A DNA stretch of 64,000 bases from assembly GCA_902761035.1 (NCBI GenBank), contig CACWIW010000006.1:14462-78461 (forward strand). Reading direction: 5' to 3'. Made by a program: the position numbers and the translations under genes. The DNA comes from an uncultured bacterium. GTDB lineage: Bacteria; Verrucomicrobiota; Kiritimatiellia; RFP12; UBA1067. This document shows, piece by piece, positions 1,977-45,008 of this stretch. The notes under the pieces are model-generated. The model was not told the origin of the DNA and made no database searches. It saw only the letters and a program-made list of their open reading frames with translations. Each line of letters opens with the position of its first letter. The stretch's first letter is position 1.

Positions 1977-3137
1977 ATGAGCAAAGTCTTAGTCATCGTC
2001 GAGCGGTTCTATCCCGAGGATTTCCTCGTGAACGACCTTGTCGCGGAGTGGAAGAAACTCGGCGACGAGGTGGAAGTGCTCACCCAGGTGCCCAGTTACC
2101 CCTTCGACCGCATCTTCGACGGCTACAAGAACAAAGCCTACCAGACCACGCGCGAATACCTCGACATTCCCGTCCACCGCGTGAGCACCATCTTCGGCTA
2201 CAACACGAGCGTGAAGCGCAAGGTGCTCAACTACCTCCACTTCGGCTGGATGACGTTCTGGTGGGCGCTCTGGAACGGACGCAAGTACGACCGCGTGTTC
2301 GTGTACCACACGGCCGCCCTCACGATGGCGAGCGCCCTCTTTGCGCTCAAGACCGTCTGGCGCAAGCCCACCACGATCTGGACCCAGGACCTCTGGCCCG
2401 ACGCCGTCTGGGGCTTTGGCTTCCGGCGTACGCGCGGACGCGAAGCGTTTCTCAACTGGTTCGTGCGCCGCATCTACAAACGCTGCGACCGCATCTGCGT
2501 GAGCTGTCGGGGGTTCGTGCCGCGCATCCGAGAAATCTGCAACCGCGAGGCCGAATTCATCCCGCAGTGGGACCCCGCGCCGATGGACCTTCCCCCATCG
2601 CCGCCACACGCGGGAATTGTCTTCATGTTCGCGGGCAATCTCGGCGTACCGCAGGATCTCGACAACGTGCTCGAGGGCTTCACCCACGCGAACATCCCCG
2701 GCGCGGAACTCCACTTCGTCGGCGGCGGCGTACAGCTCGAACACCTCAAGGAGAAGGCGGCAACGTGCGGCGCGTCGGTCAAGTTCCACGGACGCCAGCC
2801 GAAGGCGGACATGCCGCGCTGGTTCGCGCAGGCGGACGCGCTGATCATTTCGCTCACGCCAGAATACCAGCTCACCCTGCCCGGGAAGTTCCAGAGTTAC
2901 ATCAAGACCGGCAAGCCGATTCTCGGCATCCTCCTCGGCGACGCACGCGAACTGATCGAGGAACACCAGCTCGGCATCACCGCCGACCCCGATGACGTCA
3001 CCGCCATCGCCGATGCCTTCCGTCGCATGGCGGAACTCATCCGCCGCGGCGACGGTCCATCCTGTGGCGCGCGCGCGCGCGAGCTCTCAGAGCAAATGTT
3101 CGACCGCTCGCGCCTCATCGCCGCGCTCCGCGCGTAG
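1977..3137 (+). CDS. Glycosyltransferase family 4 (WbuB-like L-FucNAc transferase type)
   Basis: 386 aa. It has the GT4 C-terminal signature (FMFAGNLG ... GKPILGIL) and is divergent from the fnlA/fnlB-like genes. Confidence 0.7.
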   Translation: MSKVLVIVERFYPEDFLVNDLVAEWKKLGDEVEVLTQVPSYPFDRIFDGYKNKAYQTTREYLDIPVHRVSTIFGYNTSVKRKVLNYLHFGWMTFWWALWNGRKYDRVFVYHTAALTMASALFALKTVWRKPTTIWTQDLWPDAVWGFGFRRTRGREAFLNWFVRRIYKRCDRICVSCRGFVPRIREICNREAEFIPQWDPAPMDLPPSPPHAGIVFMFAGNLGVPQDLDNVLEGFTHANIPGAELHFVGGGVQLEHLKEKAATCGASVKFHGRQPKADMPRWFAQADALIISLTPEYQLTLPGKFQSYIKTGKPILGILLGDARELIEEHQLGITADPDDVTAIADAFRRMAELIRRGDGPSCGARARELSEQMFDRSRLIAALRA

Positions 3138-3147
3138 CCATCACAAT

Positions 3148-3316
3148 GTCCAAGGTCCCAAGTCCTAAATCCTTTGTCTTCCGTCCTCTGTCCTTTGTCC
3201 TCTTCCCGTTTTAGGACAGAAGACGAAAGACAAAAGACAAAGGCCTTTAGGACAGAGGACAAAAGACGAAGGACAAAGGCTGGAGGACGAAAGACTAAAG
3301 GACGAAAGACGAAGAC
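3148..3316. repeat. Hairpin repeat copy 1 (pyrimidine-rich arm GTCCTTTGTCCTC ... loop ... purine-rich arm AGGACAAAAGACAAAGG)
   Basis: Begins gtccaaggtcccaagtcc. A Y-arm is followed by the loop cgtttt and then three R-arms. Copies also occur at 4117 and 5772. The sequence is translated into spurious low-complexity ORFs (FVFCPSSSVLK). Confidence 0.75.
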
Positions 3317-3360: not shown

Positions 3361-4074
3361 TCACACGTTTCGCGTGAAGTCGCACTCCGGATACCCGGTA
3401 CAGCCCCAGAACTCGTTCCCTGCGTTACGGCCCTTGCGCGCCAGTATCTTGTGGAGGTTACGCCCACATCGCGGACATTTCGGGGTGTCGCCGTGGTTCA
3501 CACGCGCGTTCTCGTCGCGTACCGCGATTCGTGCCCGGCTCATCCGCTCGGTGAAACCGCCCTCCACGAGGAACGCATCGACCGTCTTGTCCATCTGGCC
3601 CTTCAGGAGCGCGGCGGCCCGGCGGATGGTAATCAGGATCGCATTCGCGGCAATGAGCGGGTCTTCGTTCTCCAGCCATTCGACACAACGCAGCCGCATC
3701 GCCAGGATGTATTTCCCGAACTCATGATCAAGGTCGTCCAATGCGTCGAAAGCGTCCAGTTGCAGTGCCTTGACCGCCTGATAGCGTTCGTCAGACTGCG
3801 ACCACGGCGCTTCGCCTGCATCCACAAGGTAGACTTCGTAATCACCGGCCAACTCGTCAAGCGAGCCCTTCGCGACATCGAGCTGACGCAGTTCCTGTTC
3901 TTTCGAGGTTGCGGCACGGGATGAGGCCTCCACGATGTTCTGGCGTGCGCTCCTGGCTGCGCCGACCATCTGTCCGACGGTCTTGCCGAGGGCATCGTTC
4001 TTGTAGTTGAAGTTGCGCTTGCAGAAAAGCGTCGTCGCATGATACACGAGGCACGTGAACCCGAAGGAGTACAT
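3361..4074 (-). CDS. Four-helix-bundle protein (TIGR02436 / 23S-rRNA-IVS / Avd-like) fused to a C-terminal topoisomerase-type C4 zinc ribbon
   Basis: The N-terminal half matches the four-helix-bundle family (KNDALGKT...NIVEAS...LDVAKGSLDELAGDYEVYL, compare ARGSLYELETQ of the paralog at 31409). The C-terminus CPRCGRNLHKILARKGRNAGNEFWGCTGYPECDF is a zf-C4_Topoisom motif. The track ORF 3361..4308 runs into repeat copy 2, and the start chosen here is the Met codon at 4072-4074. Confidence 0.55.
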   Translation of the reverse strand: MYSFGFTCLVYHATTLFCKRNFNYKNDALGKTVGQMVGAARSARQNIVEASSRAATSKEQELRQLDVAKGSLDELAGDYEVYLVDAGEAPWSQSDERYQAVKALQLDAFDALDDLDHEFGKYILAMRLRCVEWLENEDPLIAANAILITIRRAAALLKGQMDKTVDAFLVEGGFTERMSRARIAVRDENARVNHGDTPKCPRCGRNLHKILARKGRNAGNEFWGCTGYPECDFTRNV

Positions 4075-4116
4075 CTTTCGGTATCCGCCGTAATGGCCAA
4101 TGATCCGAAAACGTCC

Positions 4117-4300
4117 CGTCGCTTCGCGCGTCACGTGGTCCAAGGTCCTAAATCCTTTGTCCGTTGTCATCTGTCCTTTGTCCTTTCTCTTTTTTAGGAC
4201 AGAGGACGAAGGACAAAAGACAAAGGCCCGTCGCTTCGCGCGTTCCATTGTCCAAAGTCCTTTTGTCCTATCATCCTCTGTCCTTTGTCTTATGTCCTTT
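4117..4300. repeat. Hairpin repeat copy 2 (1.5 units)
   Basis: cgtcgcttcgcgcg + gtccaaggtcctaaatcctttgtcc ... ttttttaggacagaggacgaaggacaaaagacaaagg, then a second Y-arm. Confidence 0.75.
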
Positions 4301-4304
4301 GTCC

Positions 4305-5402
4305 TCAATCCTGTTGCTTCAGCAAATACCTGTTCGACACGATCTTGAAATGCGTGTCGTCGATCCCGTCCGAAGCCTTCAGCACGATTCCCTCCCGCTC
4401 GTTGCCGCGCAAGGTCTTGCCCTCTGCAAACTGAAGCGCAGCATCCATGGTCGTGACCTCGTCAAAGAAAGGGAAATCCTCATGCAACACCTGCACATGC
4501 GGAATCGCAAGCTTCGCGCAAAACGCCACGCGGTCGCGCGGCATCATGAAACGCTGTGCGCACACATCCCAGATTCTGAAAACATGGAACTCGTACTCCG
4601 GGTAACGGTCACGGTCGGCGTTGATTCCAGGACCGACCAATTCACCCTGCAACGCGATCTCAAGGTGCGATTCCTCAAAGACCTCCCTGAGCTTCGCCTC
4701 GATGTCGTATTTCACGGCAACCTGCCAGAACGCAGAGACCGTGCCCCCTTCCATCGGACGCTTCAGCCGCAGGTTCCGTGAGCAGACGCCGAACGGCTCC
4801 TCGGGATCGATTGTCGGCGAAAAGAACATCGTCGCGGACGAACCGTCGTCTTTCGCCGTGATTTCAAAGCGACGTCCCTTCAGCGACGTGAAATACTCGG
4901 TCAATCCTTGAAGCCGCTCCTCGTCGCTCTTTGGAATGTACGAAGGGAACGCCCCCATCGCGTCGGCGTTCAGCGGGTTCCCCATGGCGGGCTGCAACTG
5001 TTCCTTCACTTCGTCATAGTGGTCGACTTTCAGTAGGGCAGTAAGGTCTGCACCCTCAGCCATTCCCTCCGCCTCGGGAAAAGCCGAAGCGGGCATAAGC
5101 AGCCCCTGCGACACAACGCCGCGAAGTTTCGCGGTCTTGATGCGGAACCCCTCGCGAAGCACGCCACCGCTCTTTGACACGAACTTGCGAAGACACCGCT
5201 CGCGCAGAAACGCATAACGCTCGTCGTCCGGCGGGAGATAGCTGTCGATTTCAAAGTAGACAGCCCTGTCGCCCGGCGCGAACTCATCGCGCCCGGTGAC
5301 CACGCGCCACCCCTTGCCCTTCATCGTAGCCACGGAAAGCCGTTCCGTATCGGGGATTGGATCGCACGAGGCGATCTCCACCACTGATGCCAGTTTTCTC
5401 AT
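4305..5402 (-). CDS. ATP-dependent RNA ligase, DRB0094 (DraRnl/Rnl5-like) family
   Basis: MRKLASVVEIASCDPIPDTERLSVATMKGKGWRVVTGRDEFAPGDRAVYFEIDSYLP matches the family N-terminus. Nucleotidyltransferase motif I is ITAKDDGSS (KxDG). The likely start is Met17 of the track ORF. Confidence 0.7.
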   Translation of the reverse strand: MRKLASVVEIASCDPIPDTERLSVATMKGKGWRVVTGRDEFAPGDRAVYFEIDSYLPPDDERYAFLRERCLRKFVSKSGGVLREGFRIKTAKLRGVVSQGLLMPASAFPEAEGMAEGADLTALLKVDHYDEVKEQLQPAMGNPLNADAMGAFPSYIPKSDEERLQGLTEYFTSLKGRRFEITAKDDGSSATMFFSPTIDPEEPFGVCSRNLRLKRPMEGGTVSAFWQVAVKYDIEAKLREVFEESHLEIALQGELVGPGINADRDRYPEYEFHVFRIWDVCAQRFMMPRDRVAFCAKLAIPHVQVLHEDFPFFDEVTTMDAALQFAEGKTLRGNEREGIVLKASDGIDDTHFKIVSNRYLLKQQD

Positions 5403-5727
5403 TGAGACACTCCTGTTGTTACTCTGTTGAAACGGCCTTGCGGCCGCCATGCGGCATCCTCGCCACTCGACAGTGACGCCGCACCAGCAGTAACCCCACG
5501 CAGGAACAGCTCTGCATGGTCAGGAATAGGCCCTGCCTCGCCAACCCTTTCGGGCATTCCGCGTTTTTCAGCGGATGAACTCGCTACCCGGCCCAAGAGG
5601 ATCCCATGCACTCCAGTCATGGGTCCCGTCCGGACGGCTCCCGCTGTATAGCCCCACCGAGGGCATCAATTCCCGAGAGCGTCGATAGTGTAGCACACCC
5701 CTCACTGTGGCACAAGCGCAAAATCCC

Positions 5728-5757
5728 TAAAAAAACGAGCGGCAGCGCCACCGCGCC
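5728..5757 (-). terminator. Putative intrinsic terminator (minus strand)
   Basis: On the minus strand, a GC-rich imperfect stem gcggcggcgc/gcgctgccgc is followed by tttttttag. Confidence 0.35.
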
Positions 5758-5771
5758 GCCGCCTTCTCACA

Positions 5772-5960
5772 CCGTCCAAAGTCCAATGTCCAAAGTCCTA
5801 CATCCTCTGTCTTCTGTCCTCTGTCCTTTGTCCTCTCGTCCCGTCCCATCCTTTGTCTTCTGTCCTCTGTCCTTTGTCCTCTTCCCTTTTAGGACAAAAG
5901 ACGAAGGACAAAAGACAAAGGCCTTTAGGACAAAGGACAAAAGACAAAGGTGAAGGACGA
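5772..5960. repeat. Hairpin repeat copy 3 (two Y-arms, loop, two R-arms)
   Basis: gtccaaagtccaatgtccaaagtcc ... gtcctctgtcctttgtcctcttccctttt aggacaaaagacgaaggacaaaagacaaagg cctttaggacaaaggacaaaagacaaagg. Confidence 0.75.
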
Positions 5961-6046: not shown

Positions 6047-6090
6047 TCCAAAAAAATCAGCGGCGGCACCACCGCGCCACCGCTCACCTC
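6047..6090 (-). terminator. Putative intrinsic terminator downstream of the Wzy-like gene
   Basis: The minus strand reads agcggtggcgc ggtggt gccgccgct followed by gattttttt. It is near-identical in architecture to the 5728 hairpin and lies on the other side of repeat copy 3. Confidence 0.4.
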
Positions 6091-6118
6091 ACGCCATCCA
6101 GCCACAAACCACTACCAA

Positions 6119-7714
6119 CTACCCCTTCAACCCATACCGCCTCACCGTGCGCTCGCTCTCAACCATCCGCCGGCGGCCAGATGCATCTTCCACAAGTTCA
6201 AAAGCTGGAGCGGTCATCTGGAATCCCATGCTCGCCCACTGTTGCTCAAGTTGGCGGCGGTAGAGAAGATACGTATCAATCGTAAACCCGCCGACCACAC
6301 CTATCATCCAGAGGATGCCCCCCGTTCCCCCAGGCGAAAAAAGCGTCGCCTCACCCATGTTCGTAACGAGCATGACAGTAAACAACGAAAGTGTGACGAT
6401 ATATTTGCGCCGAACACAGGCACCACAAAACGAAAAGATGAAAATGAGGAAGCACGTTTCCCCAAGTATCCCCGTCTCCCCCAGCACCATCACAGGCGCA
6501 ACGCCTTTCTCAATAGGGGCGGAAAAGATGAATCCCTTACTGCGTGCCACAAGATCTTGCGTATATTCGGCCACTTGGAATCCGCTTCCAATCAAAGGCT
6601 TGCGCTTGAACTCATAAAGACTTTGCTCCATCAACCCCAGTCGACTTGACGTCATCGCCTCGCCCAATGACCGTTGATCCTCCTCTTCCTCATTCGTCTT
6701 GCGCATCCACCGCGACATGGTTCCCGTAGTCAACTGGGCGACAACGGCCACAACCACGAGCAAGGCACCACTCACCATGATTCCCCGACTGAGACGTTCC
6801 CGCAACCCCGGCGGCAACTGAACTTTTCGCGCCGCATAAAACGCACTCATATACATCGCGGCAACAACGGAAATCAGACCTACACGCGACCGCGTCATAT
6901 AGACAAGCGGCAGAGCGAAAACAATGATGCTCAGATGCAACCAGCGGAAACGACGTTCGAGGAGGAGCATGTCGCAGAGCACCCATCCCACCGTCAACGC
7001 GAGAAGTGGCGCAAAGGTCTGCGCGTGGTTCGTTATACCACCAAAAAGGGACATACCTCCCGCTGCCTGTATCTGCTGGTAGACCTCATCGGCCACTGCA
7101 AATCTATCGTTCTCAAGCCACCATTGAAGAGTTGTGGAATAGCCGATACTGGGTATGGCCATCATCGGGATACTGCCAAAAACCAACACAAACGCCAATG
7201 CAAGGAAGAAACTCCGAAGAACAAGTACATCTTTCGGGCGTTCCTGGAGATTCTGTGTGCCAAACCAAATGCCAAACAGGAAGACACAAAAGTTTGTCAA
7301 CTTGATCAGGCTCACGCTGGGAGCCCATCCATCCACCGACGAAACGATTGCCGCCAGGACAAAAGGAACAATCCCAATCAGAGGCAACTTGTGCCGTCCC
7401 TGCCGTGACGCGCCACGCATAGCCAATATCAAGCCAATCAGAAGAGGTCCAAAGCGAATTGAAGCACCCCATAAAGACGACGCAGCCCCCGTGATCCCGT
7501 GGTTCAGGATGGCAAAAAAAGGCATCATAACGAAAAACACAAGCGCCCATCCCAAATTGTTCGCGAATGCCATGCATACACCAACCAAGGTATAAACAGG
7601 CATGATGTATCCACGCGTCAGACGGCAAAGGACAATGGTAAATACCGTAAAGATCACCATTCTAAAGGTGAGCTTATAGATGTCCGTGTCTTTATAAAAA
7701 TTCGACTGGTTCAT
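6119..7714 (-). CDS. O-antigen polymerase/ligase family membrane protein (Wzy_C-like), polytopic
   Basis: 531 aa with more than 10 predicted TM helices and a large periplasmic loop, typical of Wzy/WaaL. It is the first gene of the lower-GC locus. Confidence 0.6.
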   Translation of the reverse strand: MNQSNFYKDTDIYKLTFRMVIFTVFTIVLCRLTRGYIMPVYTLVGVCMAFANNLGWALVFFVMMPFFAILNHGITGAASSLWGASIRFGPLLIGLILAMRGASRQGRHKLPLIGIVPFVLAAIVSSVDGWAPSVSLIKLTNFCVFLFGIWFGTQNLQERPKDVLVLRSFFLALAFVLVFGSIPMMAIPSIGYSTTLQWWLENDRFAVADEVYQQIQAAGGMSLFGGITNHAQTFAPLLALTVGWVLCDMLLLERRFRWLHLSIIVFALPLVYMTRSRVGLISVVAAMYMSAFYAARKVQLPPGLRERLSRGIMVSGALLVVVAVVAQLTTGTMSRWMRKTNEEEEDQRSLGEAMTSSRLGLMEQSLYEFKRKPLIGSGFQVAEYTQDLVARSKGFIFSAPIEKGVAPVMVLGETGILGETCFLIFIFSFCGACVRRKYIVTLSLFTVMLVTNMGEATLFSPGGTGGILWMIGVVGGFTIDTYLLYRRQLEQQWASMGFQMTAPAFELVEDASGRRRMVESERTVRRYGLKG

Positions 7715-24335: not shown

Positions 24336-25658
24336 TCAAATCAAGCCAACTATTTCCTTAATTGGCAAACAGAGTTCCGCACTGGCCTCCTGTGCACGTT
24401 CACATTCAAGGATGCGCTCAGCACACTTAAGCATGGCAGGATAGGCTGCACGAAGAAGTTGGTTCGCGTAAATGACAATATTGACGCCGATCGCGGCAAG
24501 CTCGGTCTCCGTAACCTGTGAGTAGGTGGAGGGAACAACCACAATTGGCTTGTCCACAGAGACCTCGGCACGAAAGCGCCTGACAAAAGACAGTATCTCG
24601 TCTGGCGTTTTCGCCTTGGAGTGAATCATGATTCCATCAGCGCCTGCGTTAATGTAAGCACGACAACGATTGATTGCGTCGTCCTCGCCGGCTCCGGTGA
24701 TGAGCGATTCGCAGCGAGCGAAAATCATGAAGTCATCCGTAATCTGCGCCTGCTTGCCGACCGTGATTTTATGGCACTGGTCCTCAGTTGAAGCCTGACG
24801 CTGAACATTACCCTGTTCAAGAAGCGAATTTTGCTTGAGCCCCACCTTGTCCTCGATGATGACAGCAGAGACGCCAAGGCGTTCAAGCGAACGAACAAGA
24901 AACACAAAGTGCTCGGGAAGTCCGCCGGAATCGCCGTCATAGATAATCGGTTTCGTCGTCACTTCGAGGATGTCGTTGACCGTGCGAAGACGTGAGGTGA
25001 TATCGACGGATTCGTTATCAGGCTTGCCCTTCAACGTAGAATCGGTGAGCGACGAGAGCCACATCGCATCGAACTCGTGCTTCACCTTTGCACCATTCGG
25101 ATCACCGGGATCCTTCGGCACCATCACACTCGTGTTTTCGACGATGAGGCCGGAAAGTCCGCTGTGCGCCTCCATTACGCGAACGATGGGTTTGGCGTTC
25201 AAGAGACGGCGCAAGCGGCGACGGCGGATGTCCGGCGTGGTACCAACTTCGCGGATGGCCTTGTTGAGTTGCGTCGAAGAAATGCCTTCCGTGTATTCCG
25301 GCTCAACGAGCTCGCCGCCCCATGTCGCGAGGGTGTCGATCACGCGCTGGCGCGTCTTCGCCTGGACGCCCTCACGCCAGTCGGTGCCGTGAACGACATA
25401 GTCCGGCTTGAGTTTGAGGAGGTTCGGGATGTAGTCGAGCTGCTCCTGGGGGATGACTTCATTCACGCCCTTGAGCGAGCGCACCACTGCGGCGCGCTGC
25501 TCGTAATTCATGTAGGGCAGACGCTTGTAGCTCGCAATGGCCGCGTCGGTCAAGACGCCGACGGTGACTTCACCAAGCTTAGATGCTTCCTTGATGATAT
25601 TGAGATGCCCCGGATGAATGATATCCGCAGACATCGCAACATATACGCGCTTAGACAT
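24336..25658 (-). CDS. Bifunctional cytidylyltransferase (PntC-like) / phosphoenolpyruvate phosphomutase fusion, copy A
   Basis: N-terminal [13 protein letters not shown] (HxGH cytidylyltransferase) is fused to a PEP mutase/isocitrate-lyase-superfamily domain ([29 protein letters not shown]). It is about 95% identical to copy B at 40121. Confidence 0.8.
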
Positions 25659-26631
25659 TGAATGATTCCTTTCTGACCTCAACAGGATTGTTTCCGAGGC
25701 GCTTCAGGTTGACATGGGAGAAAAGCTCATCGACGAGAGAAGTGCAGTCGATGCCTTTTTCAGTGGCAAGTTCCCGGAGAGTCTTCAATTCAGGCACATT
25801 CTTGATGTACTCTGGATGCCCGTTGTTGCGGCAGATGTACTCGAAGACCATATACACGGCGTGCCCATGCGGGATGCCGTAATGCGAAGTGAGATAATAC
25901 GAGAACGCATGCGCGGCAGTTGTGCGCGAGATGTCAATCGCTCTTCCCGCCCAGTAGCTCGCCTCCGGCCAGTCATCCCCCTTCATCAGCGCAAGCGCAC
26001 GATTCGCATATTCCTTCGACTCATCCGTTGCACCCTTCGCCCAAAGCGATTCAACCGCCTGGGCGTATGCGTCAAAGTTCGTCGCTGCTTTCTGATAGGC
26101 GGGCAATGTGGCAGAAAACTCCGGGACAATTGCCACGTCAGAAGGGCGGAGCACCTCAAAGTCGATGGAGTATTTCGTTTCGCCATCATAGCAGACGGCA
26201 AAGCGCGTGGCCTCTGCGCCTGTTCCCGCCGTTGTCGGGATTGCAAAACATGGCAACACGGTCGATGGCGCTGTTTTATGAGTTAGCAGTTCCCTGATCG
26301 ACATTCCAGAAACAATCGCGAGATTAAGTAGCTTCGAAGTATCAATCGGAGTGCCACCGCCTACGGCAATGAAGCCATCTACAGGTTCCTTGATCGCTGA
26401 AAGCAACGACTGCACCTCTTCAACCTTAGGATTTGAACTGGGAACAGCAAGATGTGTGATGATTGGTTTGTTAACGCAGAGACGCAGGGACGCAGAGATA
26501 AAATCCTCCGCACCGCAAAGCCTGTACGACGCTCCCCCTGTCACGAGGCAGATGTGAGACTTACTTGTAGAAAACTTAACCAGAGCCTCTACAGCATTTT
26601 CCCTACCAACTACCAATTTTTGTTCATTCAT
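25651..26631 (-). CDS. Iron-containing alcohol dehydrogenase, phosphonoacetaldehyde reductase (PhpC)-like, copy A
   Basis: Group III Fe-ADH fold (GGGTPIDT..., [19 protein letters not shown]). It sits in the phosphonate block. It carries the in-frame (ACGCAGAG)3 repeat encoding SLRLC. Confidence 0.7.
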
Positions 26632-26635
26632 ATCC

Positions 26636-28045
26636 TCATGTCCTTTTACCATGCAGTACAAAGAAAACAATTCCGAGAAGAGACCAGAGGCCCAGCATCA
26701 TGTATGCCTGCTTGTTCAGGCAACCCGGCATTCCCGGGATGAGCAGCAGCGCGACAAAACCGAGGGATAGAATGGTTCCTAGCACTGCAAGGCATCGCAG
26801 AGCCGTCCTTGGCTGTGCCTCAAGACCCTGTGAACGTCTCCGGCGGATTGTCACAAAGCAACTCCAGGTAGCATATCCAAAACCGATCGCTCCACCTATC
26901 GCCGCCATGTCCACAAACCATCCAAGCGCCGTACGCCCGAACCAAGGGCCGACTACCGAGAACACCAGACAAAATAGGATCGCATTTGCAGGCGTACCAT
27001 GCGTGGGATGAAGCTTCGCAAACATTGCAGGGATATACCCATCTCGTGCCATCGAATAGAGCAGACGACTTGTAGCCGTGAGAAATCCAAGTATGCCGGT
27101 CAAGATCGCGCTTGCTACGGCTATCCCAAGTACCACCAGTCCCGCCTTGCCCATCAGCGCCTCTACTGCCGCACCCACAGCCCAATCGTGTTGTTTGATG
27201 AATTCCGTCCATTCCGGAGATGCCGCCGCCGTCACGAGGTTGTTGCAGGAATACACCACACATCCAAAGGCGATTGCCACAATCATGATCAAGTTCACCT
27301 TGCCGATCGAGAAATTGAGCTCCTCGGCCGCCTGCGGAATCGTCTCAAATCCGACGTATGCCCATGGCGCCACCGCCACGATTGCCAGGATTCCGCCCAC
27401 GGCTTGCTTGGAGAACACGCTCGTGCAGTCGGCAGATGGTCCCCACAGCGGAACGAGGTTTGACCAGTGCGTAATCGGGCTAAACAACGCCGAGATAGTA
27501 ATCACCAGAAAGGCCGTTGCGAGCGAGATGGCCATGATCGACTGAACCAAGCCAGATTTCTTAATGCCGCGAATCGAGAGCCAAGAGACAAACACCAGTA
27601 CCGCAATGGAAAGCAGCACCTCCCCAAACCAGATGTCATATCCCACCACTTGATACAGTTTGCCAAACTGGAACACGCCGAAGAACAACTTGCGCGTCAT
27701 CAACCCCAACGCCGTGCAGTTCATGGGGACATTCGCCAAATAGGCCAATGCCAGAAACCAGCCGCAGAAGCACGCATGTTTGTCGCCAAAGCACTCGCGC
27801 GCAAAATTGACCTCGCCTCCGGCCTTGGGATGAAGCGACACCATGTAGCTGTAGCTGAAGGCGATGACCACCATGATCAGCGCCCCAATCACCATGGCGA
27901 TGGTCGTACCCAGCGTCCCTGCGGTTGGAAGGAACGTCGTTCCAGGCATCATGAACGCGCCCCATCCAATGATGCAGCCAAACGCTAGCGCCCACACGCT
28001 CATCGGCGAAAGGTCGCGCTTGAATCTGGTGTTGTCCGAGGACAT
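26636..28045 (-). CDS. APC-superfamily amino acid permease, copy A
   Basis: 469 aa with 12 predicted TM helices and the APC/AA_permease_2 pattern. Confidence 0.65.
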   Translation of the reverse strand: MSSDNTRFKRDLSPMSVWALAFGCIIGWGAFMMPGTTFLPTAGTLGTTIAMVIGALIMVVIAFSYSYMVSLHPKAGGEVNFARECFGDKHACFCGWFLALAYLANVPMNCTALGLMTRKLFFGVFQFGKLYQVVGYDIWFGEVLLSIAVLVFVSWLSIRGIKKSGLVQSIMAISLATAFLVITISALFSPITHWSNLVPLWGPSADCTSVFSKQAVGGILAIVAVAPWAYVGFETIPQAAEELNFSIGKVNLIMIVAIAFGCVVYSCNNLVTAAASPEWTEFIKQHDWAVGAAVEALMGKAGLVVLGIAVASAILTGILGFLTATSRLLYSMARDGYIPAMFAKLHPTHGTPANAILFCLVFSVVGPWFGRTALGWFVDMAAIGGAIGFGYATWSCFVTIRRRRSQGLEAQPRTALRCLAVLGTILSLGFVALLLIPGMPGCLNKQAYMMLGLWSLLGIVFFVLHGKRT

Positions 28046-28047
28046 CG

Positions 28048-29169
28048 TCAGGAATTGTATCTCACCTTGACACCAAACGCTGTGATCGCGTCTTTCAAGA
28101 CTTTCATGAAGTCATCAATGTCGCACGCATCAATTGCGCCGAGTGCACACAACCTGAAGGTCTTCACGGAACCGACCTTGCCGGCATAAATGGTAAAACC
28201 ACGGTCACGGCAATAGTCATGGATCTTCTCAAAGGACCAGTTCGGATCATCGGGATAGCAGACGGATATCACAAGGCCAGCCTGATACTCTCTTTTGATG
28301 AGGCTGCGGAGTCCAATCTCTGCAAGTCCCTTGTGAAGTGCTTCGAACACACGGGTATGCCGAGCCCATTTTGCAGTCTCGCCCTCTGCAAAATACTCCT
28401 TCATCGCCTGCCTCGTTGCGTAGATGGTCTGGACAGGCGGCGTGAAATGCATCTCGCCGGTCTTCTCGAAGAAATCATACTGACGGAAGAGGTTGCAGTA
28501 GAAGGACCTCTTCGGGAAGGTGGCCGACTCCTTGATCTTGTCCTCGCGTCCGACCACGAAGGATAACCCCGTCATCGACTGCAAGCCCTTCTGGGCACTT
28601 GCCATCAGGAAGTCCACGTTGTCGTCGATGATGTTAATGGGGCGCATCGCGTATGTTGATGTCGTATCCACAATGAAGGTACAGCCATGTTTGTGGGCAA
28701 CAGCACCGATCTCGCGCATTGGATTGAGCACACCAGAACCCGTTTCATGATGGGTGGTGTACACGAGAGCGACATCGGGGTTCACGGTAAGAGCCTTGTC
28801 CACCAGTGAAGGATCGACAGGCGTCTCGATCGGCAAACTGAGGTCGATATGCGGCATGCCGTAATACTGGCACACTTCTACCGCCCTGCTCGAATACGCT
28901 CCGTTGTTGGCCACGAGGATCTTCTTGTCTGCGGGCAGAAGCGAATTGAGGCAGACATCCATGTTCAACGTTCCCGAACCGCAGAAGAGAACGCTCGTGT
29001 ACCGCTCGTCGCCATGAACGACCTTCACCAAATCGCGGCGGAGGTCTTTCATGATGTCGAGGAACTCCTGCTCGCGCGGACAAATGTCCGGTATCACCTG
29101 CGCCATCTTGACAGTGTCCGTGGTCGTTGCAGGGCCAGGGTTCAACAGCACATTACGTTTGACAGTCAT
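28048..29169 (-). CDS. phnW: 2-aminoethylphosphonate--pyruvate transaminase, copy A
   Basis: LLNPGPATTTDTV N-terminus is typical of PhnW. It is a class V aminotransferase of 373 aa. Confidence 0.75.
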   Translation of the reverse strand: MTVKRNVLLNPGPATTTDTVKMAQVIPDICPREQEFLDIMKDLRRDLVKVVHGDERYTSVLFCGSGTLNMDVCLNSLLPADKKILVANNGAYSSRAVEVCQYYGMPHIDLSLPIETPVDPSLVDKALTVNPDVALVYTTHHETGSGVLNPMREIGAVAHKHGCTFIVDTTSTYAMRPINIIDDNVDFLMASAQKGLQSMTGLSFVVGREDKIKESATFPKRSFYCNLFRQYDFFEKTGEMHFTPPVQTIYATRQAMKEYFAEGETAKWARHTRVFEALHKGLAEIGLRSLIKREYQAGLVISVCYPDDPNWSFEKIHDYCRDRGFTIYAGKVGSVKTFRLCALGAIDACDIDDFMKVLKDAITAFGVKVRYNS

Positions 29170-29224
29170 TTCATCGTACCTTTCTTTTTCTTGGTGATTC
29201 TGAAATTATGATCGCAGTCATTGT

Positions 29225-30340
29225 TTATGCGTCCGCCAAAGTCTTCATATAGAGCGCCTTGTTGACCTGCGGCGGCTCCTTCGGGCGCCCGAGGTCCTTG
29301 CGTGCACCTTTTGCCACCTTGACCTCTACGAATACCGGACGGGTATTATTTAACGCAGAGACGCAGAGGCACAGAGCGTGTTCAAGAAGCTGAACATCGT
29401 ATCCTAAGGCAGCAGCAACTGACATAAGGTTAATTGCCCCACCGACGGTTGGCTGACCACCGACTGAGTCATGCGCGGCATTGTTGAAGACGATGTGCGT
29501 CAAATTGGAACAGCCGGATTGTCCGACAATCGCCATATTACCCATCTGCATAATACTTGCGCCGTCGCCGTCTAGGCAATAGACTTTGCGGTGGGGTTGC
29601 GCCTTGGCGATTCCAAGGGCAATCATTGACGCATGGCCCATTGAGCCAACTGTCAGGAAGTCGCGCGAATGGTCCTGCCCGAGGCGTTCGCGCGTCTCAT
29701 ACACCTCACGCGAAATCATACCGGTTGTCGAAACGACAACGGCGTCTTTCGGTAATGCCCTCAGTACGCCCTCAATCGCCTGCTCGCGGGGGAGCGTTGC
29801 GATGTCGAGTTTTTTGTTCTGCAATTTGTATTCGGCAAAGAGTCCCTTTCGGACAACAAGCGCGACTGGACGCGATTCCGCCTTGGCGCGTTCGACCATC
29901 TTCCGTGTCAGTTCAAGCGCGGCGACCTCGTCATCCGGCAGAATTTCCGTCGGGATGCCCAGCGTCTCGAAAAGCGAGACCGTCACCTTGCCCTGTTTCA
30001 CGTGCTGCGGCTCGTCCTTCACGCCTGGCTCACCGCGCCAGCCGACGAGCAGCACCATAGGAATGGAGTAGACATCCGGATCGGCTAGTGACGCAAGCGG
30101 ATTCACGGCATTGCCCTGTCCCGAGTTCTGCATGTACACGAGCGCGGGCTTTCCTGTTGCGAGGTAATGTCCTGCGGCCAACCCAACCGACCCTCCCTCA
30201 TTCGCGGCAATCACATGCTCTCCCCCACAGTTGTCTGTGACGTAGGCGCAAAAGCTCTTCAACAGCGAATCTGGAACTCCTGTGAAGAAATCTACTCCGC
30301 TCTTTTGCAGAGCCTCAACGACTTTAGCGACATTAACCAT
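29225..30340 (-). CDS. ppd: Phosphonopyruvate decarboxylase, copy A (TPP enzyme)
   Basis: TPP_enzyme_N domain (GVPDSLLKSFCAYV) and the TPP-binding GDGA...N motif (CLDGDGASIMQMGNMA). It is co-located with ppm. Its C-terminal region contains the (ACGCAGAG)-type repeat encoding LCLCVSAL. Confidence 0.8.
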   Translation of the reverse strand: MVNVAKVVEALQKSGVDFFTGVPDSLLKSFCAYVTDNCGGEHVIAANEGGSVGLAAGHYLATGKPALVYMQNSGQGNAVNPLASLADPDVYSIPMVLLVGWRGEPGVKDEPQHVKQGKVTVSLFETLGIPTEILPDDEVAALELTRKMVERAKAESRPVALVVRKGLFAEYKLQNKKLDIATLPREQAIEGVLRALPKDAVVVSTTGMISREVYETRERLGQDHSRDFLTVGSMGHASMIALGIAKAQPHRKVYCLDGDGASIMQMGNMAIVGQSGCSNLTHIVFNNAAHDSVGGQPTVGGAINLMSVAAALGYDVQLLEHALCLCVSALNNTRPVFVEVKVAKGARKDLGRPKEPPQVNKALYMKTLADA

Positions 30341-31408: not shown

Positions 31409-31466
31409 TTAGTCGCTAGTCGTTAGTCGATAGTCGTTAGTCGCTGGTCGTTTGTCGCTGGTCGAT
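31409..31466. repeat. Tandem TAGTCGN heptamer array (left arm)
   Basis: tagtcgctagtcgttagtcgatagtcgttagtcgctggtcgtttgtcgctggtcg overlaps the 3' end of the four-helix-bundle ORF. Confidence 0.7.
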
Positions 31467-31819
31467 AGATAGCGAGAAAGACCGTTGATTAGCTTGGCTA
31501 CTTCACTGAATAAATCGATAAGTTCAGAAGACATTCGTAAAAAGCCAAGTGATTCTGCCAACTCAAGTTGAGTCTTTGTTTCATAAAGCGAACCTCTTGC
31601 AATAGACAAAAAATGCTTGAAATCCTTATCTGTCTCTCGTCCAAAACCTTCAGCAATATTCGATGGGACAGATACTACCGCTCTTCTAATCTGATCACCT
31701 AATCCATACACCTCATCTTTAGGAAATTGCTTCTGTACCCCATACACAATCTTTGCCAAGAGCATGGCCTTCTGCCACGCCAATAGCTCTTCATAGCTCT
31801 TCACTTTCATACTCACCAT
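31409..31819 (-). CDS. Four-helix-bundle protein (TIGR02436, 23S rRNA intervening-sequence protein family)
   Basis: SYEELLAWQKAMLLAKIVY...FPKDEVYGLGDQIRRAVVSVPSNIAEGFGR...FLSIARGSLYETKTQLELA is the canonical family sequence. Confidence 0.85.
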   Translation of the reverse strand: MVSMKVKSYEELLAWQKAMLLAKIVYGVQKQFPKDEVYGLGDQIRRAVVSVPSNIAEGFGRETDKDFKHFLSIARGSLYETKTQLELAESLGFLRMSSELIDLFSEVAKLINGLSRYLSTSDKRPATNDYRLTTSD

Positions 31820-31826
31820 CTCAACT

Positions 31827-31877
31827 ACTAGCGACTAACAACTAGCGACTAACAACTAGCGACTAACGACTAAACGA
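31827..31877. repeat. Tandem CGACTAN array (right arm, inverted relative to the left arm)
   Basis: ctagcgactaacaactagcgactaacaactagcgactaacgactaaacga lies immediately upstream of the four-helix-bundle start. Confidence 0.7.
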
Positions 31878-40120: not shown

Positions 40121-41443
40121 TCAAATCAACGATATGATTTCCTTAATCGGCATGCAGAGTTCCGTGCTGGCTTCTTGTGCGCGTTCACATTCGAGGATGC
40201 GCTCGGCGCACTTGCGCATCGCTGGGTAGGCGGCACGGAGAAGCTGGTTTGCGTAGATGACGACGTTGACACCGATTGCAGCGAGTTCGGATTCCGTCAC
40301 CTGTGAATAGGTGGAGGGAACAGCAACAATCGGCTTGTCAGCGGAAACCTCAGCACGGAAAAGTTTGACGAAAGATACGATTTCATCCGGAGTCTGAGCC
40401 TTGGAGTGGATCATGATTCCGTCAGCGCCCGCATCGATATAGGCGCGACAACGATTGATGGCGTCCTCCTCGCCCGCACCGGTTATGAGCGATTCGCAAC
40501 GAGCAAAGATCATGAAGTCATCTGTAATCTGTGCCTGCTTGCCGACCTTGATCTTGTGGCACTGATCTTCAATGGATGCCTGACGCTGGACGTTACCCTG
40601 CTCAAGGAGCGAGTTCTGCTTGAGTCCGATTTTGTCCTCGATGACAACTGCCGAGACGCCAAGGCGTTCAAGCGAACGAACGAGAAACACGAAGTGCTCG
40701 GGAAGCCCACCAGAGTCGCCATCGTAAATGATGGGTTTGGTCGTCACTTCAAGGATGTCATTCACCGTGCGAAGGCGCGAGGTGATATCGACGGATTCGT
40801 TATCAGGCTTGCCTTTCAACGTAGAGTCGGTAAGCGACGAGAGCCACATCGCGTCGAACTCATGCTTCACCTTGGCTCCGTTTGGGTCGGCGGGATCCTT
40901 CGGCACCATCACGCTCGTGTTCTCGACGATGAGGCCGGAAAGTCCGCTGTGCGCCTCCATCACACGAACGATGGGTTTGGCGTTCAAGAGGCGACGTAGG
41001 CGGCGGCGGCGGATATCCGGCGTGGTGCCTACTTCGCGGATGGCCTTGTTGAGCTGTGTGGAGGAAATGCCCTCGGTGTATTCCGGTTCAACAAGCTCGC
41101 CGCCCCAGGTCGCGAGGGTGTCGATGACGCGCTGGCGCGTCTTCGCCTGTACTCCCTCGCGCCAGTCGGTGCCGTGGACGACGTAGTCCGGCTTGAGCTT
41201 GAGGAGGTTCGGGATGTAGTCAAGCTGCTCTTGCGGAATGACTTCGGTCACGCCCTTGAGCGCACGGACCACAGCAGCGCGCTGTTCGTAGTTCATGTAA
41301 GGCAGGCGCTTGTAGCTCGCAATGGCAGCATCCGTAAGAACGCCAACGGTTACGTCACCAAGCTTGGACGCTTCCTTGATGATGTTCAGGTGGCCGGGGT
41401 GAATGATGTCGGCCGACATCGCGACATAGACGCGCTTATGCAT
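40121..41443 (-). CDS. Bifunctional cytidylyltransferase / PEP phosphomutase fusion, copy B
   Basis: [22 protein letters not shown]...; near-identical to copy A. Confidence 0.8.
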
Positions 41444-42416
41444 TGAAAGACTCCTTCTTTACTTCAACAGGATTGTTTCCAAGACGCTTTAGGTTAACAT
41501 GGGCGAAAAGATCGTCAACGAGAGCATCCCAAGTGAGGCCCTTTTCGGCGGCGAGTTCGCGGAGTGTCTTCAATTCTGGTACACTCTTGATGCACTCAGG
41601 ATGTCCGTTGTTACGGCAGATATACTCAAACACCATGTACACCGCATGACCATGCGGAATGCCGTAGTGCGAGGTAAGGTAGTACGAAAACGCATGCGCG
41701 GCAGTGGTGCGAGAGATGTCAATCGCCCTTCCCGCCCAGTAGCTTGCCTCCGGCCAATTATCCTCCTTCATCAGCGCAAGCGCACGGTTCGCATACTCTT
41801 TCGATTCCACCGTGGCGCCCTTCGCCCAAAGCGACTCCACTGCTTGCGCGTATGCGTCAAAGTTTGTCGCCGCCTTCTGGTACGGCGTCTGCGTGGCAGA
41901 AAACTCTGGAACAAGTGCAACGTCCGAAGGACGTATCACCTCGAAGTCGATGGAGTACTTAACCTCTCCATCATAACACACCGCAAACCGCGTTGCCTCG
42001 GCGCCAGTGCCGGCTGTTGTCGGAACAGCCATGCACGGCAAGACTTTCGATGGCGCGGACTTGTTCGTTAGAAGCTCCTTGACTGACATCCTGGAAACAA
42101 TCGCGAGATTAAGCAGCTTCGCAGTATCAATCGGAGTTCCCCCGCCTACGGCGATAAAACCATCTACAGGTTCCTTGTTCTCTGAAAGCAACGCCTGGAC
42201 CTCTTCTACTTTGGGATTTGCACTGGGAACGGCAAGATGCGTGATGATTGGTTTATTAACGCAGAGACGCAGAGACGCAGAGATTAAATCCTCCGCACCG
42301 CAAAGTCCATACGATGCTCCCCCCGTCACGAGGCAGATGTGAGACTTGCTTGTAGAAAACTTAACCAGAGCCTCTACAGCATTTTCCCTACCAACTACTA
42401 ATTTTTGTTCAGCCAT
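41436..42416 (-). CDS. Fe-alcohol dehydrogenase (phosphonoacetaldehyde reductase-like), copy B
   Basis: Near-identical to copy A and overlaps the ppm start by 8 nt in the same way. Confidence 0.7.
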
Positions 42417-42420
42417 ATCC

Positions 42421-43830
42421 TCATGCCCCTTTACCATGCAGTGCAAAGAAAACAATTCCAATAAGAGACCAGATGCCCAGCATCATGTATGCCTGCTTGT
42501 TAAGGCAACCCGGCATTCCCGGGATGAGCAGCAGCGCGATAAAACCGAGGGATAGGATGGTTCCTAGCACTGCAAGGCATCGCAGAGCCGTCCTTGGCTG
42601 TGCCTCAAGACCCTGTGAACGTCTTCTGCGGATTGTCACAAAGCAACTCCAGGCTGCATACCCAAAACCAATCGCCCCGCCAATCGCCGCCATGTCCACG
42701 AACCATCCAAGCGCCGTGCGCCCAAACCACGGACCAACTACCGAGAACACCAGACAGAAGAGGATTGCGTTCGCAGGAGTACCATGCGCGGGGTGAAGCT
42801 TCGCAAACATTGCAGGAATATACCCATCCCGTGCCATCGAATAGAGCAGACGGCTTGTAGCCGTAAGAAAGCCAAGTATGCCGGTCAAAATTGCACTTGC
42901 CACAGCTATACCAAGCACCACCAGCCCCGCCTTGCCCATCAGCGCCTCCACGGCCGCGCCAACTGCCCAGTCATGCTGTTTGACGAATTCCGTCCACTCC
43001 GGCGATGCCGCCGCCGTCACGAGGTTGTTACAGGAATACACCACGCATCCAAAGGCGATTGCCACAATCATGATCAGGTTTACCTTGCCAATCGAGAAAT
43101 TAAACTCCTCAGCTGCCTGCGGAATCGTCTCGAATCCAACGTACGCCCACGGCGCTACCGCCACAATCGCCAGGATGCCGCTCATGGCTTGCTTGGAGAA
43201 CAAGCTCGTGCAGTGGGTGGAAGGCCCCCAGAGCGGAACAAGGTTTGACCAGTGCGTAATCGGACTGAATAACGCCGAGATGGTAATCACCAGAAAGGCT
43301 GTCGCAAGAGAGATTGCCATGATCGACTGCACCAAGCCCGATTTCTTAATGCCGCGAATCGAGAGCCACGAGACAATCACCAAAACCACAATGGAAAGCA
43401 ATACCTCCCCGAGCCAGATATCATATCCCGCCACTTGATACAGTTTGCCGAACTGAAACACGCCGAAGAACAACTTGCGCGTCATCAATCCCAACGCCGT
43501 GCAGTTCATGGGGACATTCGCCAAATAGGCCAATGCCAGAAACCAACCGCAAAAGCACGCATGTTTGTCGCCAAAGCACTCTCGCGCAAAGTTGATCTCG
43601 CCTCCGGCCTTGGGATGAAGCGACACCATGTAGCTGTAGCTGAAGGCGATGACCACCATGATCAGCGCCCCAATGACCATAGCAATAGTCGTACCAAGCG
43701 TTCCAGCCGTAGGAAGGAAAGTCGTTCCGGGCATCATGAACGCACCCCATCCTACGATGCAGCCAAACGCCAGCGCCCACACGCTCATCGGCGAGAGGTC
43801 GCGCTTGAATCTGGTCTTGTCCGATGACAT
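42421..43830 (-). CDS. APC-superfamily amino acid permease, copy B
   Basis: 469 aa, about 95% identical to copy A. Confidence 0.65.
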   Translation of the reverse strand: MSSDKTRFKRDLSPMSVWALAFGCIVGWGAFMMPGTTFLPTAGTLGTTIAMVIGALIMVVIAFSYSYMVSLHPKAGGEINFARECFGDKHACFCGWFLALAYLANVPMNCTALGLMTRKLFFGVFQFGKLYQVAGYDIWLGEVLLSIVVLVIVSWLSIRGIKKSGLVQSIMAISLATAFLVITISALFSPITHWSNLVPLWGPSTHCTSLFSKQAMSGILAIVAVAPWAYVGFETIPQAAEEFNFSIGKVNLIMIVAIAFGCVVYSCNNLVTAAASPEWTEFVKQHDWAVGAAVEALMGKAGLVVLGIAVASAILTGILGFLTATSRLLYSMARDGYIPAMFAKLHPAHGTPANAILFCLVFSVVGPWFGRTALGWFVDMAAIGGAIGFGYAAWSCFVTIRRRRSQGLEAQPRTALRCLAVLGTILSLGFIALLLIPGMPGCLNKQAYMMLGIWSLIGIVFFALHGKGA

Positions 43831-43832
43831 TC

Positions 43833-44954: not shown

Positions 44955-45008
44955 TTCATCGTACCTTTCTTTTGAGGGTGATTCTGGGGTTACGGCCGCA
45001 ATCGTTTC

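Follow-up and report, generated by a model that had tools for sequence, protein, structure and literature searches.

A four-helix-bundle/zinc-ribbon gene framed by heptamer hairpins and an adjoining RNA ligase gene in a surface-polysaccharide locus of Kiritimatiellae

Organization of the locus

The 64,000-nucleotide stretch of contig CACWIW010000006.1 analysed here (hereafter the window) comes from an uncultured bacterium of the Kiritimatiellae and carries, between positions 3361 and 5402, two co-oriented genes on its minus strand. One encodes a four-helix-bundle protein that ends with a C4 zinc ribbon and the other encodes an ATP-dependent RNA ligase. The genes that surround them are protein-coding (glycosyltransferase, Wzy-like protein, epimerase) and three clusters of heptamer repeats able to form hairpins lie before, between and after them. 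On balance, these are probably two unrelated accessory genes that happen to adjoin in a strain-variable surface-polysaccharide (sugar-coat) locus of a gut or rumen bacterium: the bundle gene would belong to a cassette resembling the intervening sequences (IVSs) of 23S rRNA genes and the ligase gene would be unrelated to it. No rRNA or other RNA family was detected anywhere in the window at Rfam gathering scores, and permissive E-values only added far-sub-threshold models of eukaryotic microRNA precursors, which mean merely 'long hairpin'.

Relatives of the bundle/zinc-ribbon protein were searched among 5.8 billion proteins, which gave 1,634 of them, the best 120 being inspected for domain hits. 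One genome per species was retained for the comparison of loci, leading to a set of 80 loci carrying the fusion gene with at most 10 kb on each side (1.1 Mb in total). Nearly all of these loci belong to metagenome-assembled genomes (MAGs) of Kiritimatiellae, Lentisphaerae, Victivallales and Verrucomicrobia from rumen and gut, and a genome often harbors several copies.

The bundle/zinc-ribbon protein and its family

The bundle gene is included in an open frame that extends from 3361 to 4308 on the minus strand. Its realistic start is GTG 4134, which defines a coding sequence of 257 amino acids (3361-4134) supported by domain matches and by the 1,634 homologues; TTG 4143 and ATG 4170 are alternative in-frame starts and all three starts are located within the upstream repeat arm. 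The four-helix-bundle core corresponds to residues 17-105 (3820-4086, minus strand) and is recognized by TIGR02436, by hhalign, by the helices of a structural model and by fold matches to the structures 2GSC and 2RLD. It is followed by a 'four helix bundle suffix' domain (3517-3654, minus strand) and by a C4 zinc ribbon of the topoisomerase I type, which is also GRF-like (3367-3480, minus strand; motif KGRNAGNEFWGC, cysteines C220, C223, C245 and C251). The zinc ribbon matches Zn_ribbon_Top1 of Pfam (PF01396) with 39.1 bits for a cut-off of 32 and the suffix matches '4helix_suffix' of NCBIfam (TIGR04258) with 48.0–48.4 bits for a cut-off of 40. The match to TIGR02436 is marginal (25.0–25.4 bits, cut-off 24) and that to 23S_rRNA_IVP of Pfam (PF05635), with 24.4 bits, is under the cut-off of 33.8; a precomputed PF05635 match is present in many homologues.

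In an alignment of 41 homologues, no variation is seen at the four cysteines of the zinc ribbon or over much of the bundle. The conserved core begins at IIGHYGGYRK and the residues of the family signature QMVGAARSARQNIVEASSR...DVAKGSLDEL are invariant. This signature corresponds to a motif spanning helices 2 and 3 (Q..RA..S...NI.EG ... A.GSL.E) and aligns with QIRRAVVSVPSNIAEGFGR...SIARGSLYET of a canonical bundle protein encoded elsewhere in the window (see below); hhalign aligns the fusion protein with the latter over 43 columns (35% identity, E 0.018). An AlphaFold (AF2) monomer model computed from the 41-sequence alignment (pLDDT 87) comprises long helices at residues 22-41, 51-73 and 78-105 and a small C-terminal three-stranded ribbon. 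When this model was compared with the PDB by Foldseek, the IVS-family bundle 2GSC (XCC0516; 2gsc_B) was matched with a TM score of 0.79 on the target and a probability of 1.00; 2RLD (BT_0352) was also matched and no other family was consistent, with weak whole-chain E-values (~0.25). The C-terminus was matched to the GRF zinc finger of NEIL3 (probability 0.97, root-mean-square deviation 2.1 Å). A PDB sequence search with the bundle-family profile only gave marginal hits, including 2GSC at E 0.67.

The best 120 of the 1,634 relatives share 63–96% identity with the protein of the window over ~250 amino acids, and a precomputed PF01396 hit is present in 114 of these 120. Most of the homologues originate from Kiritimatiellae, Lentisphaerae and Verrucomicrobia, and they are labelled in public databases either 'four helix bundle suffix protein' (JGI) or 'topoisomerase DNA-binding C4 zinc finger domain-containing protein'. 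The bundle/zinc-ribbon proteins are a large conserved subfamily of the S23p/IVS-type four-helix-bundle proteins, centered on the Planctomycetes–Verrucomicrobia–Chlamydiae group. The preliminary description of this DNA had proposed a four-helix bundle fused to a topoisomerase-type C4 zinc ribbon while envisaging that the fusion might be a frameshift artefact. TIGR02436 (marginally), TIGR04258, the 2GSC/2RLD fold and the helix-2/3 signature agree with the first domain call, and the PF01396 score and the four invariant cysteines with the second. As the fusion is widely conserved among the 1,634 homologues, it is not a frameshift artefact. A literature search found no publication that describes bundle/zinc-ribbon proteins and almost nothing on TIGR02436/PF05635 outside diversity-generating retroelements (DGRs).

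PADLOC gave no match at E ≤ 0.01 for the bundle protein, the ligase or the canonical bundle protein, so that a known anti-phage defence system was rejected. Very many of the contigs that carry a bundle gene in the list of homologues are only 0.9–2 kb long, i.e. about the length of the gene plus flanks. Assemblies would thus seem to be interrupted routinely by the flanking repeats, leading to an undercount of these elements in MAGs.

Heptamer hairpins of the window

The three repeat clusters are described below without being assigned to a strand. Cluster A (3147-3314) consists, on the plus strand, of a (GTCCnnn)n arm (3147-3203), a 9-nt loop and an (AGGACAA)n arm (3213-3314); seen in the gene orientation, the long arm (3314→3213) lies downstream of the bundle gene and constitutes its 3' arm. 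This cluster contains tandem arrays of period 7 detected by TRF, the repeat families D1-D3 and inverted pairs, and folds at -69.3 kcal/mol (z -6.5, the z-scores being computed against shuffles). Cluster B (4137-4312) comprises, in the gene orientation, an (AGGACAA)n arm (4312→4240), a centre with GCGAAGCG and a (TTGTCCT)n arm (4228→4196), which together constitute a complete hairpin; after a AAAAAAGAGA spacer comes a 5' arm, (AAGGACA)n (4186→4137), which runs into the start region of the bundle gene. Its RNA folds at -53 kcal/mol (z -8.1). Cluster C (5766-5950) consists, on the plus strand, of a (GTCCnnn)n arm (5774-5882), an 8-nt loop and an (AGGACAA)n arm (5891-5950), and its RNA folds at -55.2 kcal/mol (z -8.1). 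Taking all hairpins folded, energies range from -53 to -71 kcal/mol and z-scores from -6.5 to -10.7. The 12-mer GTCCTTTGTCCT occurs 19 times with at most one mismatch, for 0.21 occurrences expected, and 18 of these occurrences are inside the three clusters.

In the clade to which the window belongs, the bundle gene itself lies inside a hairpin, with (AAGGACA)n over the start region and (TTGTCCT)n after the stop. In the predicted fold of a 1,181-nt transcript, the 5' arm 4186→4137 pairs across the bundle open reading frame (ORF) with the arm 3314→3213. A motif containing GCGAAGCG recurs at both ends of the bundle-gene element of the window.

Upstream of the ligase gene, an untranslated leader of ~335 nt (5403-5737, minus strand) extends from a terminator-like site to the ligase; it has a modest structure (fold z-score -2.8) and no match to the sigma-70 consensus. 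This terminator-like site, a hairpin with a T-run (5738-5763, minus strand), is a near-copy of another one (6059-6084, minus strand) located directly after the Wzy-like gene (6119-7714), the two copies forming the direct repeat D5 (85% identical). These two GC stems (5763-5738 and 6084-6059) are the only strong terminator-like sites of a consensus scan. The heptamer hairpins were rejected as intrinsic terminators, since they have no U-runs and none of them is listed by the scan. The two terminator-like stems bracket cluster C, as if ~320 bp with a hairpin had been inserted while duplicating the terminator of the Wzy-like gene.

At the centre of hairpins of the window (4229-4239), of locus L001 (5865-5895) and of loci L043, L049 and L050 lies the sequence GCGAAGC or the complementary GCTTCGC. 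As DNA, d(GCGAAGC) is known to form a mini-hairpin of unusual stability. This loop is limited to two protein clades, in opposite orientations, and the small apical hairpins of the other clades are unrelated to it; a loop motif conserved across hairpins was therefore rejected.

Heptamer arrays around the bundle gene family

In the 80 loci, 121 heptamer arrays are located at 500 bp or less from the fusion gene, i.e. 0.93 per kb versus 0.02–0.20 per kb farther away. When only strictly 7-nt-phased runs of GAC or GTC are considered, 244 are found in the 62 kb near the gene versus 86 in the other 1,057 kb, which amounts to a ~48-fold enrichment within 400 nt. Most runs have three (n = 93) or four units (n = 141) and only 10 have at least five. 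The usual layout is [GAC x4 - loop - GTC x4] - gene - [GAC x4 - loop - GTC x4], and the hairpins are co-oriented with the gene (57 GAC>GTC versus 11 in the reverse order). The GAC (or GTC) core is invariant and the other four bases of the unit are specific to the protein clade (GACTTCN, GACnnGA, GACAnAG, GACAnCC, GACTTGC, GACnTGG and others). Paralogues from a single genome carry different heptamer units.

The window contains a second element of this design (31409-31873, minus strand), in which a canonical four-helix-bundle gene (132–136 amino acids, TIGR02436 119.8 bits) is enclosed by two inverted heptamer arrays, one of (TTAGTCG)n (31823-31873) and one of the complementary unit (31409-31468), the gene being given as 31409-31819. 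The same design was found in loci L021 and L007, and canonical bundle genes are directly flanked by (GGACARA)n in the environmental contigs L115, L195 and L212. The arms of the 31.4-kb element have seven to eight units each and carry stop codons in all three frames; two glycosyltransferase genes flank this element.

The RNA ligase gene and the gene pair

The ligase gene (4305-5402, minus strand) encodes a 365-amino-acid protein assigned to ATP-dependent RNA ligases of the Rnl5 type by Pfam, by alignment with the structure 5COT and by phrog_968. An upstream ATG (5450) is an over-call because an AGGAG sequence sits 7 nt before 5402. The protein harbors an N-terminal oligonucleotide/oligosaccharide-binding (OB) fold (~5091-5393) followed by a nucleotidyltransferase domain (~4338-4871), the same domain order as in DraRnl from Deinococcus (DRB0094) and NgrRnl from Naegleria (5COT). 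It matches the PHA02142 OB-fold (PF21189, 92.1 bits) and RNA_ligase (PF09414, 89.9 bits) families of Pfam as well as the 'RNA ligase' family phrog_968 (4.5e-79). It aligns end-to-end with NgrRnl (E 1.7e-47), AKDDG being located over the catalytic VKLDG, so that Lys184 (codon 4851-4853, minus strand) is the predicted adenylylated lysine of motif I. The LQGE, FHVFRIWD, EGIVLK and FKIVSN sequences are also present, motifs I, III, IIIa, IV and V being conserved. Unlike established Rnl5 ligases, the protein misses the trusted cut-off of TIGR02306 (143.1 bits, just under 151.15, on model positions 2-341 of 341). Taken at face value, it is an intact ligase of the Rnl5 type, presumably a nick-sealing RNA repair enzyme, encoded by a separate accessory gene that is distributed independently of the bundle gene. 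One of its homologues is annotated as Kiritimatiellae.

The preliminary description had recognized a DRB0094-family ligase with a KxDG motif and hairpin repeats around both genes, and these points are confirmed by the alignment with NgrRnl and by the three clusters that bracket the pair. It had also suggested that the two genes form an RNA-processing/repair module, in which the bundle protein and the ligase would cooperate, for example to re-seal RNA cut at the hairpins. The genes are indeed adjacent, co-oriented and probably co-transcribed from a shared leader. Furthermore, cuts of the RNase III type leave 5'-phosphate and 3'-OH ends, which are joined by Rnl5 enzymes. The distribution of the two genes points in another direction. 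In a tblastn search of the 80 loci, the ligase is present in just two of them (L019 and L020), which encode bundle proteins 91–92% identical to that of the window. The metagenome contigs L009 and L011-L013, which carry a 93%-identical ligase and keep the pair, belong to the same lineage. Co-occurrence is thus restricted to closest relatives (~90% identity or higher).

Even within such close relatives, the ligase can be missing: L018 encodes a 97%-identical bundle protein and lacks the ligase through a clean 1.2-kb indel. The blastn breakpoints (window 4187/4188 and 5410/5411, L018 3769/3770), for which the junction sequences were read directly, delimit a ligase cassette (4188-5410, minus strand) that comprises the ribosome-binding site, the ligase ORF and one complete hairpin. 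In L018, a 96%-identical leader (window 5411-5766) abuts the upstream repeat arm of the bundle gene and precedes this gene directly.

More distant relatives of either gene occur without the other. Bundle genes whose products are 76–82% identical have as neighbours a Tle1-like hydrolase, an AAA/PDDEXK_9 ATPase, AAA_14/DUF4143 or Wzy, and no ligase was found within 10 kb. Still more distant ones adjoin recA, Big_2 proteins or phosphoesterases, with no ligase in the copies examined; because of these neighbours, a polysaccharide-specific regulator was rejected as the general role of the bundle protein. Conversely, ligase homologues with 78–81% identity are found in three other glycan-locus contexts, without bundle gene and without heptamer arrays. 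Since the enrichment in arrays follows the bundle gene and the relatives of the ligase lack them, the hairpins are a feature of the bundle gene family, with which they are co-inherited, and not of the pair. The presence of the ligase in 2 of the 80 loci, the L018 indel and the occurrence of ligases elsewhere lead to the conclusion that the two genes are independent; a joint RNA module is therefore very unlikely. Whereas the domain calls, the fusion and the mobile-element flavour of the preliminary description stand, its two-gene RNA module does not, the pair being essentially not conserved together outside of one lineage. This result is a caution against inferring function from a single adjacency.

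Relationships with known elements

The bundle-gene element resembles the 23S IVSs of Coxiella burnetii and Leptospira. The Coxiella IVS carries the ORF of an S23p bundle protein in a stem made of complementary termini and is excised by RNase III (PMC4990558). Just before the ORF come three to four tandem GACAGAT heptamers, whose number varies according to the strain, and the first of these repeats is the site of the RNase III cut (PMC4990558). In both kinds of elements, the protein belongs to the TIGR02436/PF05635 superfamily and the ORF is enclosed by complementary stem sequences. GAC-core heptamers precede the ORF in Coxiella as they do in the 5' arm of the window, where GACAGAT is found verbatim and where such heptamers lie directly upstream of the start and over it. 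Both kinds are also regarded as selfish elements. In contrast to IVSs, the element of the window is located outside rRNA, among protein-coding neighbours, its protein is twice as long, with a suffix domain and a zinc ribbon, and complete hairpins usually lie on both sides of the gene instead of a single enclosing stem. Both proteins of the locus are of known kinds, and the combination of the gene with heptamer hairpins, which is located outside rRNA and whose repeat unit is specific to the clade, represents a variation on the intervening-sequence theme. What the bundle proteins encoded by 23S IVSs do, and where these IVSs come from, is a decades-old puzzle, for which the zinc-ribbon branch with its hairpins gives a testable handle.

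To our knowledge, the Avd protein of DGRs is the only member of the four-helix-bundle family with a known role; it is a pentamer that binds nucleic acids and the reverse transcriptase (RT). Avd has a four-helix-bundle fold of the same Pfam/TIGR family and the canonical protein of the 31.4-kb element is matched by the PHROG family 'Avd protein of DGR' (5.8e-07). No such hit was obtained with the zinc-ribbon protein. A crude scan with regular-expression motifs of the window and of 100 related loci found no RT-type motif combination and no template/variable repeat, in keeping with the earlier statement that no RT was visible. A DGR remnant was rejected, given this lack of RT-type motifs in the window and in the 100 loci and the lack of an Avd hit for the fusion protein.

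Other heptamer arrays are known. Passages of PMC4692102 deal with paired convergent arrays of GGGAATC in Xanthomonas and with the heptamer STRR repeats (GGGGAYT) of cyanobacteria (Nostoc). As in the window, these are tandem 7-nt intergenic units, often found as convergent pairs able to form stem-loops, and the passages concerned report no link with a gene family (PMC4692102). By contrast, the units of the window type have a GAC core, form uniform arms of ~4 units, are tied to one gene family and are clade-specific.

The element also shares features with the RAYT/REP(IN) systems and the attC sites of integrons, i.e. a gene flanked by hairpins that also occur solo nearby and inserts made of an ORF and one hairpin. 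Unlike these systems, the bundle protein carries no Y1 transposase or integrase domain, and the hairpins are tandem heptamers and not REP or attC core sites. No integrase was found among ~110 Pfam-annotated neighbour genes from 17 related loci, no search aimed at an integron integrase or attC having been made. Finally, a speculative functional analogy, without homology, may be drawn with TRAP-type ring proteins, which read spaced triplet repeats in RNA: the putative target here also consists of conserved triplets, GAC recurring every 7 nt with variable bases in between, and the bundle family forms toroidal pentamers.

A model for the element and competing explanations

The element might operate as follows. 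The bundle gene and its hairpins would constitute an intervening-sequence-like selfish cassette lodged between the genes of operons. Stems of 30–45 bp on the transcript would act as RNase III-type processing sites or as insulating sites, thereby separating the RNA of the cassette from the host messages. The bundle protein, which probably forms a ring like XCC0516 (cited in a passage of PMC4990558 as a toroidal pentamer of the bundle family), would recognize, via its zinc ribbons, the GAC arrays of the element that encodes it when these are single-stranded. Its binding would control the formation of the stems or its own translation, the latter being proposed because the start codon lies inside the 5' arm. 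The ligase-plus-hairpin segment would either have been gained between the leader and the bundle gene or have been lost from L018, and the two proteins would not work together. A bolder version, which seems unlikely, would make the bundle/zinc-ribbon proteins ring-shaped sequence-specific readers of their own GAC arrays, with one subunit per 7-nt unit on arms of ~4 units and with the four variable bases matching the clade. The whole would be a self-contained element, related to ribosomal IVSs and located outside rRNA, that controls RNA processing or cassette exchange in operons. If so, the ring-reader element would be newly recognized and would give a function to the S23p/IVS proteins.

Several observations weigh against such an IVS-like cassette. 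Cleavage by RNase III and binding of the protein to the repeats are both drawn by analogy only. The order of the arms in the clade of the window differs somewhat from the majority pattern. The arrays are not obligatory, as protein clades without arrays exist (clusters 18, 20, 8 and 14). They also flank unrelated genes in bundle loci (acyltransferase, Fic, sulfatase-maturase, DUF1559, phosphoesterase). A metagenome scan for (GGACARA)3 yielded at least 120 contigs of environmental origin; none of those retrieved encodes the fusion protein and eight carry canonical bundle genes. On these contigs, the same-unit arrays mostly do not form hairpins and have 3–26 units. In 73 distinct hairpins, non-Watson-Crick positions are as often A.C as G.U (104 each), so that selection on the stems at the RNA level is unsupported and a constraint at the DNA level or a recent duplication fits at least as well. 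Lastly, the idea of a mobile element, already put forward in the preliminary description, agrees with the strain-variable, hairpin-bounded and cassette-like insertions, but no empty site was found for the bundle gene itself, whose mobility is thus not demonstrated.

Part of these observations would be expected if the arrays had no functional link with the bundle gene, i.e. if they were a generic intergenic simple repeat of variable regions, akin to STRRs or to the Xanthomonas arrays, and if the bundle gene were an ordinary small gene often present there. The arrays found in environmental contigs, those flanking unrelated genes and the array-less clades would all fit, and paired convergent heptamer arrays are already described in passages of PMC4692102. 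Such a coincidence would however not explain the ~48-fold enrichment within 400 nt of the gene, the specificity of the unit for the clade with different units beside the paralogues of one genome, the sharp size of the arms beside the gene (three to four units versus a broad spread elsewhere) or the 57:11 orientation bias. Nor would it account for the same arrangement in the Coxiella IVS and next to canonical bundle genes. A mere cohabitation of arrays and gene thus appears improbable.

Comparison of related loci reveals a mosaic organization, with a cassette behaviour at hairpins that also agrees with the IVS-like cassette. The glycosyltransferase gene located at 1977-3137 in the window is absent from L019 and is found elsewhere in L020. 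A Tle1-like ORF with one copy of the hairpin is present in L001 and absent from L003, the hairpin being duplicated at the junction. An alternative is an element acting at the DNA level, in which the hairpins would be single-strand or cruciform sites of cassette exchange (attC- or REP/RAYT-like). The bundle protein would be a hairpin-binding factor encoded next to its own sites, like RAYT genes between REPs. The indels do end at or next to hairpin copies, the inserts consist of an ORF and one hairpin, and hairpins of the same unit bracket unrelated neighbouring genes. The equal numbers of G.U and A.C mismatches suggest no selection on the RNA strand and favour a DNA-level role. Zinc ribbons of the Top1/GRF type bind single-stranded DNA, and that of the bundle protein would suit this role. 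The many homologue contigs of ~1 kb would be expected if assemblies break at multi-copy flanks.

On the other hand, no domain of a recombinase, nuclease or transposase was recognized in the bundle protein. Among the ~110 neighbours called in the 17 loci, no integrase is present and a match to a Y1 transposase, a weak one, occurs just once. The ligase segment has its left end outside a hairpin, and deletions between direct hairpin copies can be explained by ordinary homologous recombination. Moreover, the strong co-orientation of the hairpins with the gene is not required of a symmetric DNA site. An exchange system working on DNA seems rather unlikely but is a serious rival, and the IVS-like cassette described above is the reading retained here.

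Other accessory genes and repeats of the glycan loci

In gut and rumen Kiritimatiellae, accessory genes bounded by hairpins accumulate in the surface-glycan loci, a point to be considered when the MAGs of these bacteria are annotated. In L009 (3871-5345), a defence-like insertion of two genes (AAA_15/AAA_21 ATPase and DUF3226) is located beside a hairpin copy and is absent from L010 and from the corresponding site of the window (6050-6119). In L020 (1273-8298), five copies of (GGACGTA)4 - loop - (GTCTTAC)4 lie between consecutive genes in a cassette-array-like manner. The genes of this array encode a Fic-domain protein, a 621-amino-acid unknown protein, a glycosyltransferase and the ligase, and the unit matches neither of the sampled bundle genes of the L020 genome.

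The glycan loci of L007, L017 and L001-L003 hold many orphan genes, encoding ATPase_2/DUF234, AAA_14/DUF4143, AAA-ATPase_like/PDDEXK_9, PDDEXK_3 and nSTAND1 proteins. The same loci also include a Y1 transposase-like gene and a canonical 23S_rRNA_IVP gene. Glycan loci may be sinks for accessory or selfish genes.

Two other kinds of repeats were observed in the window. Segments 24336-29693 and 40121-45564, within the glycan locus, form a diverged segmental duplication (~80% identity, offset ~15.8 kb) that includes ACGCAGAG and TTCTACACG triplet micro-repeats. Between 46052 and 61639, five to seven copies of an intergenic repeat of 120–225 nt are found, with the core ...GAACTCCACGCCCGCCGCCTTCAACCCATCAACAAACTTTCCAACTTCAACC..., which is unlike the heptamer hairpins.

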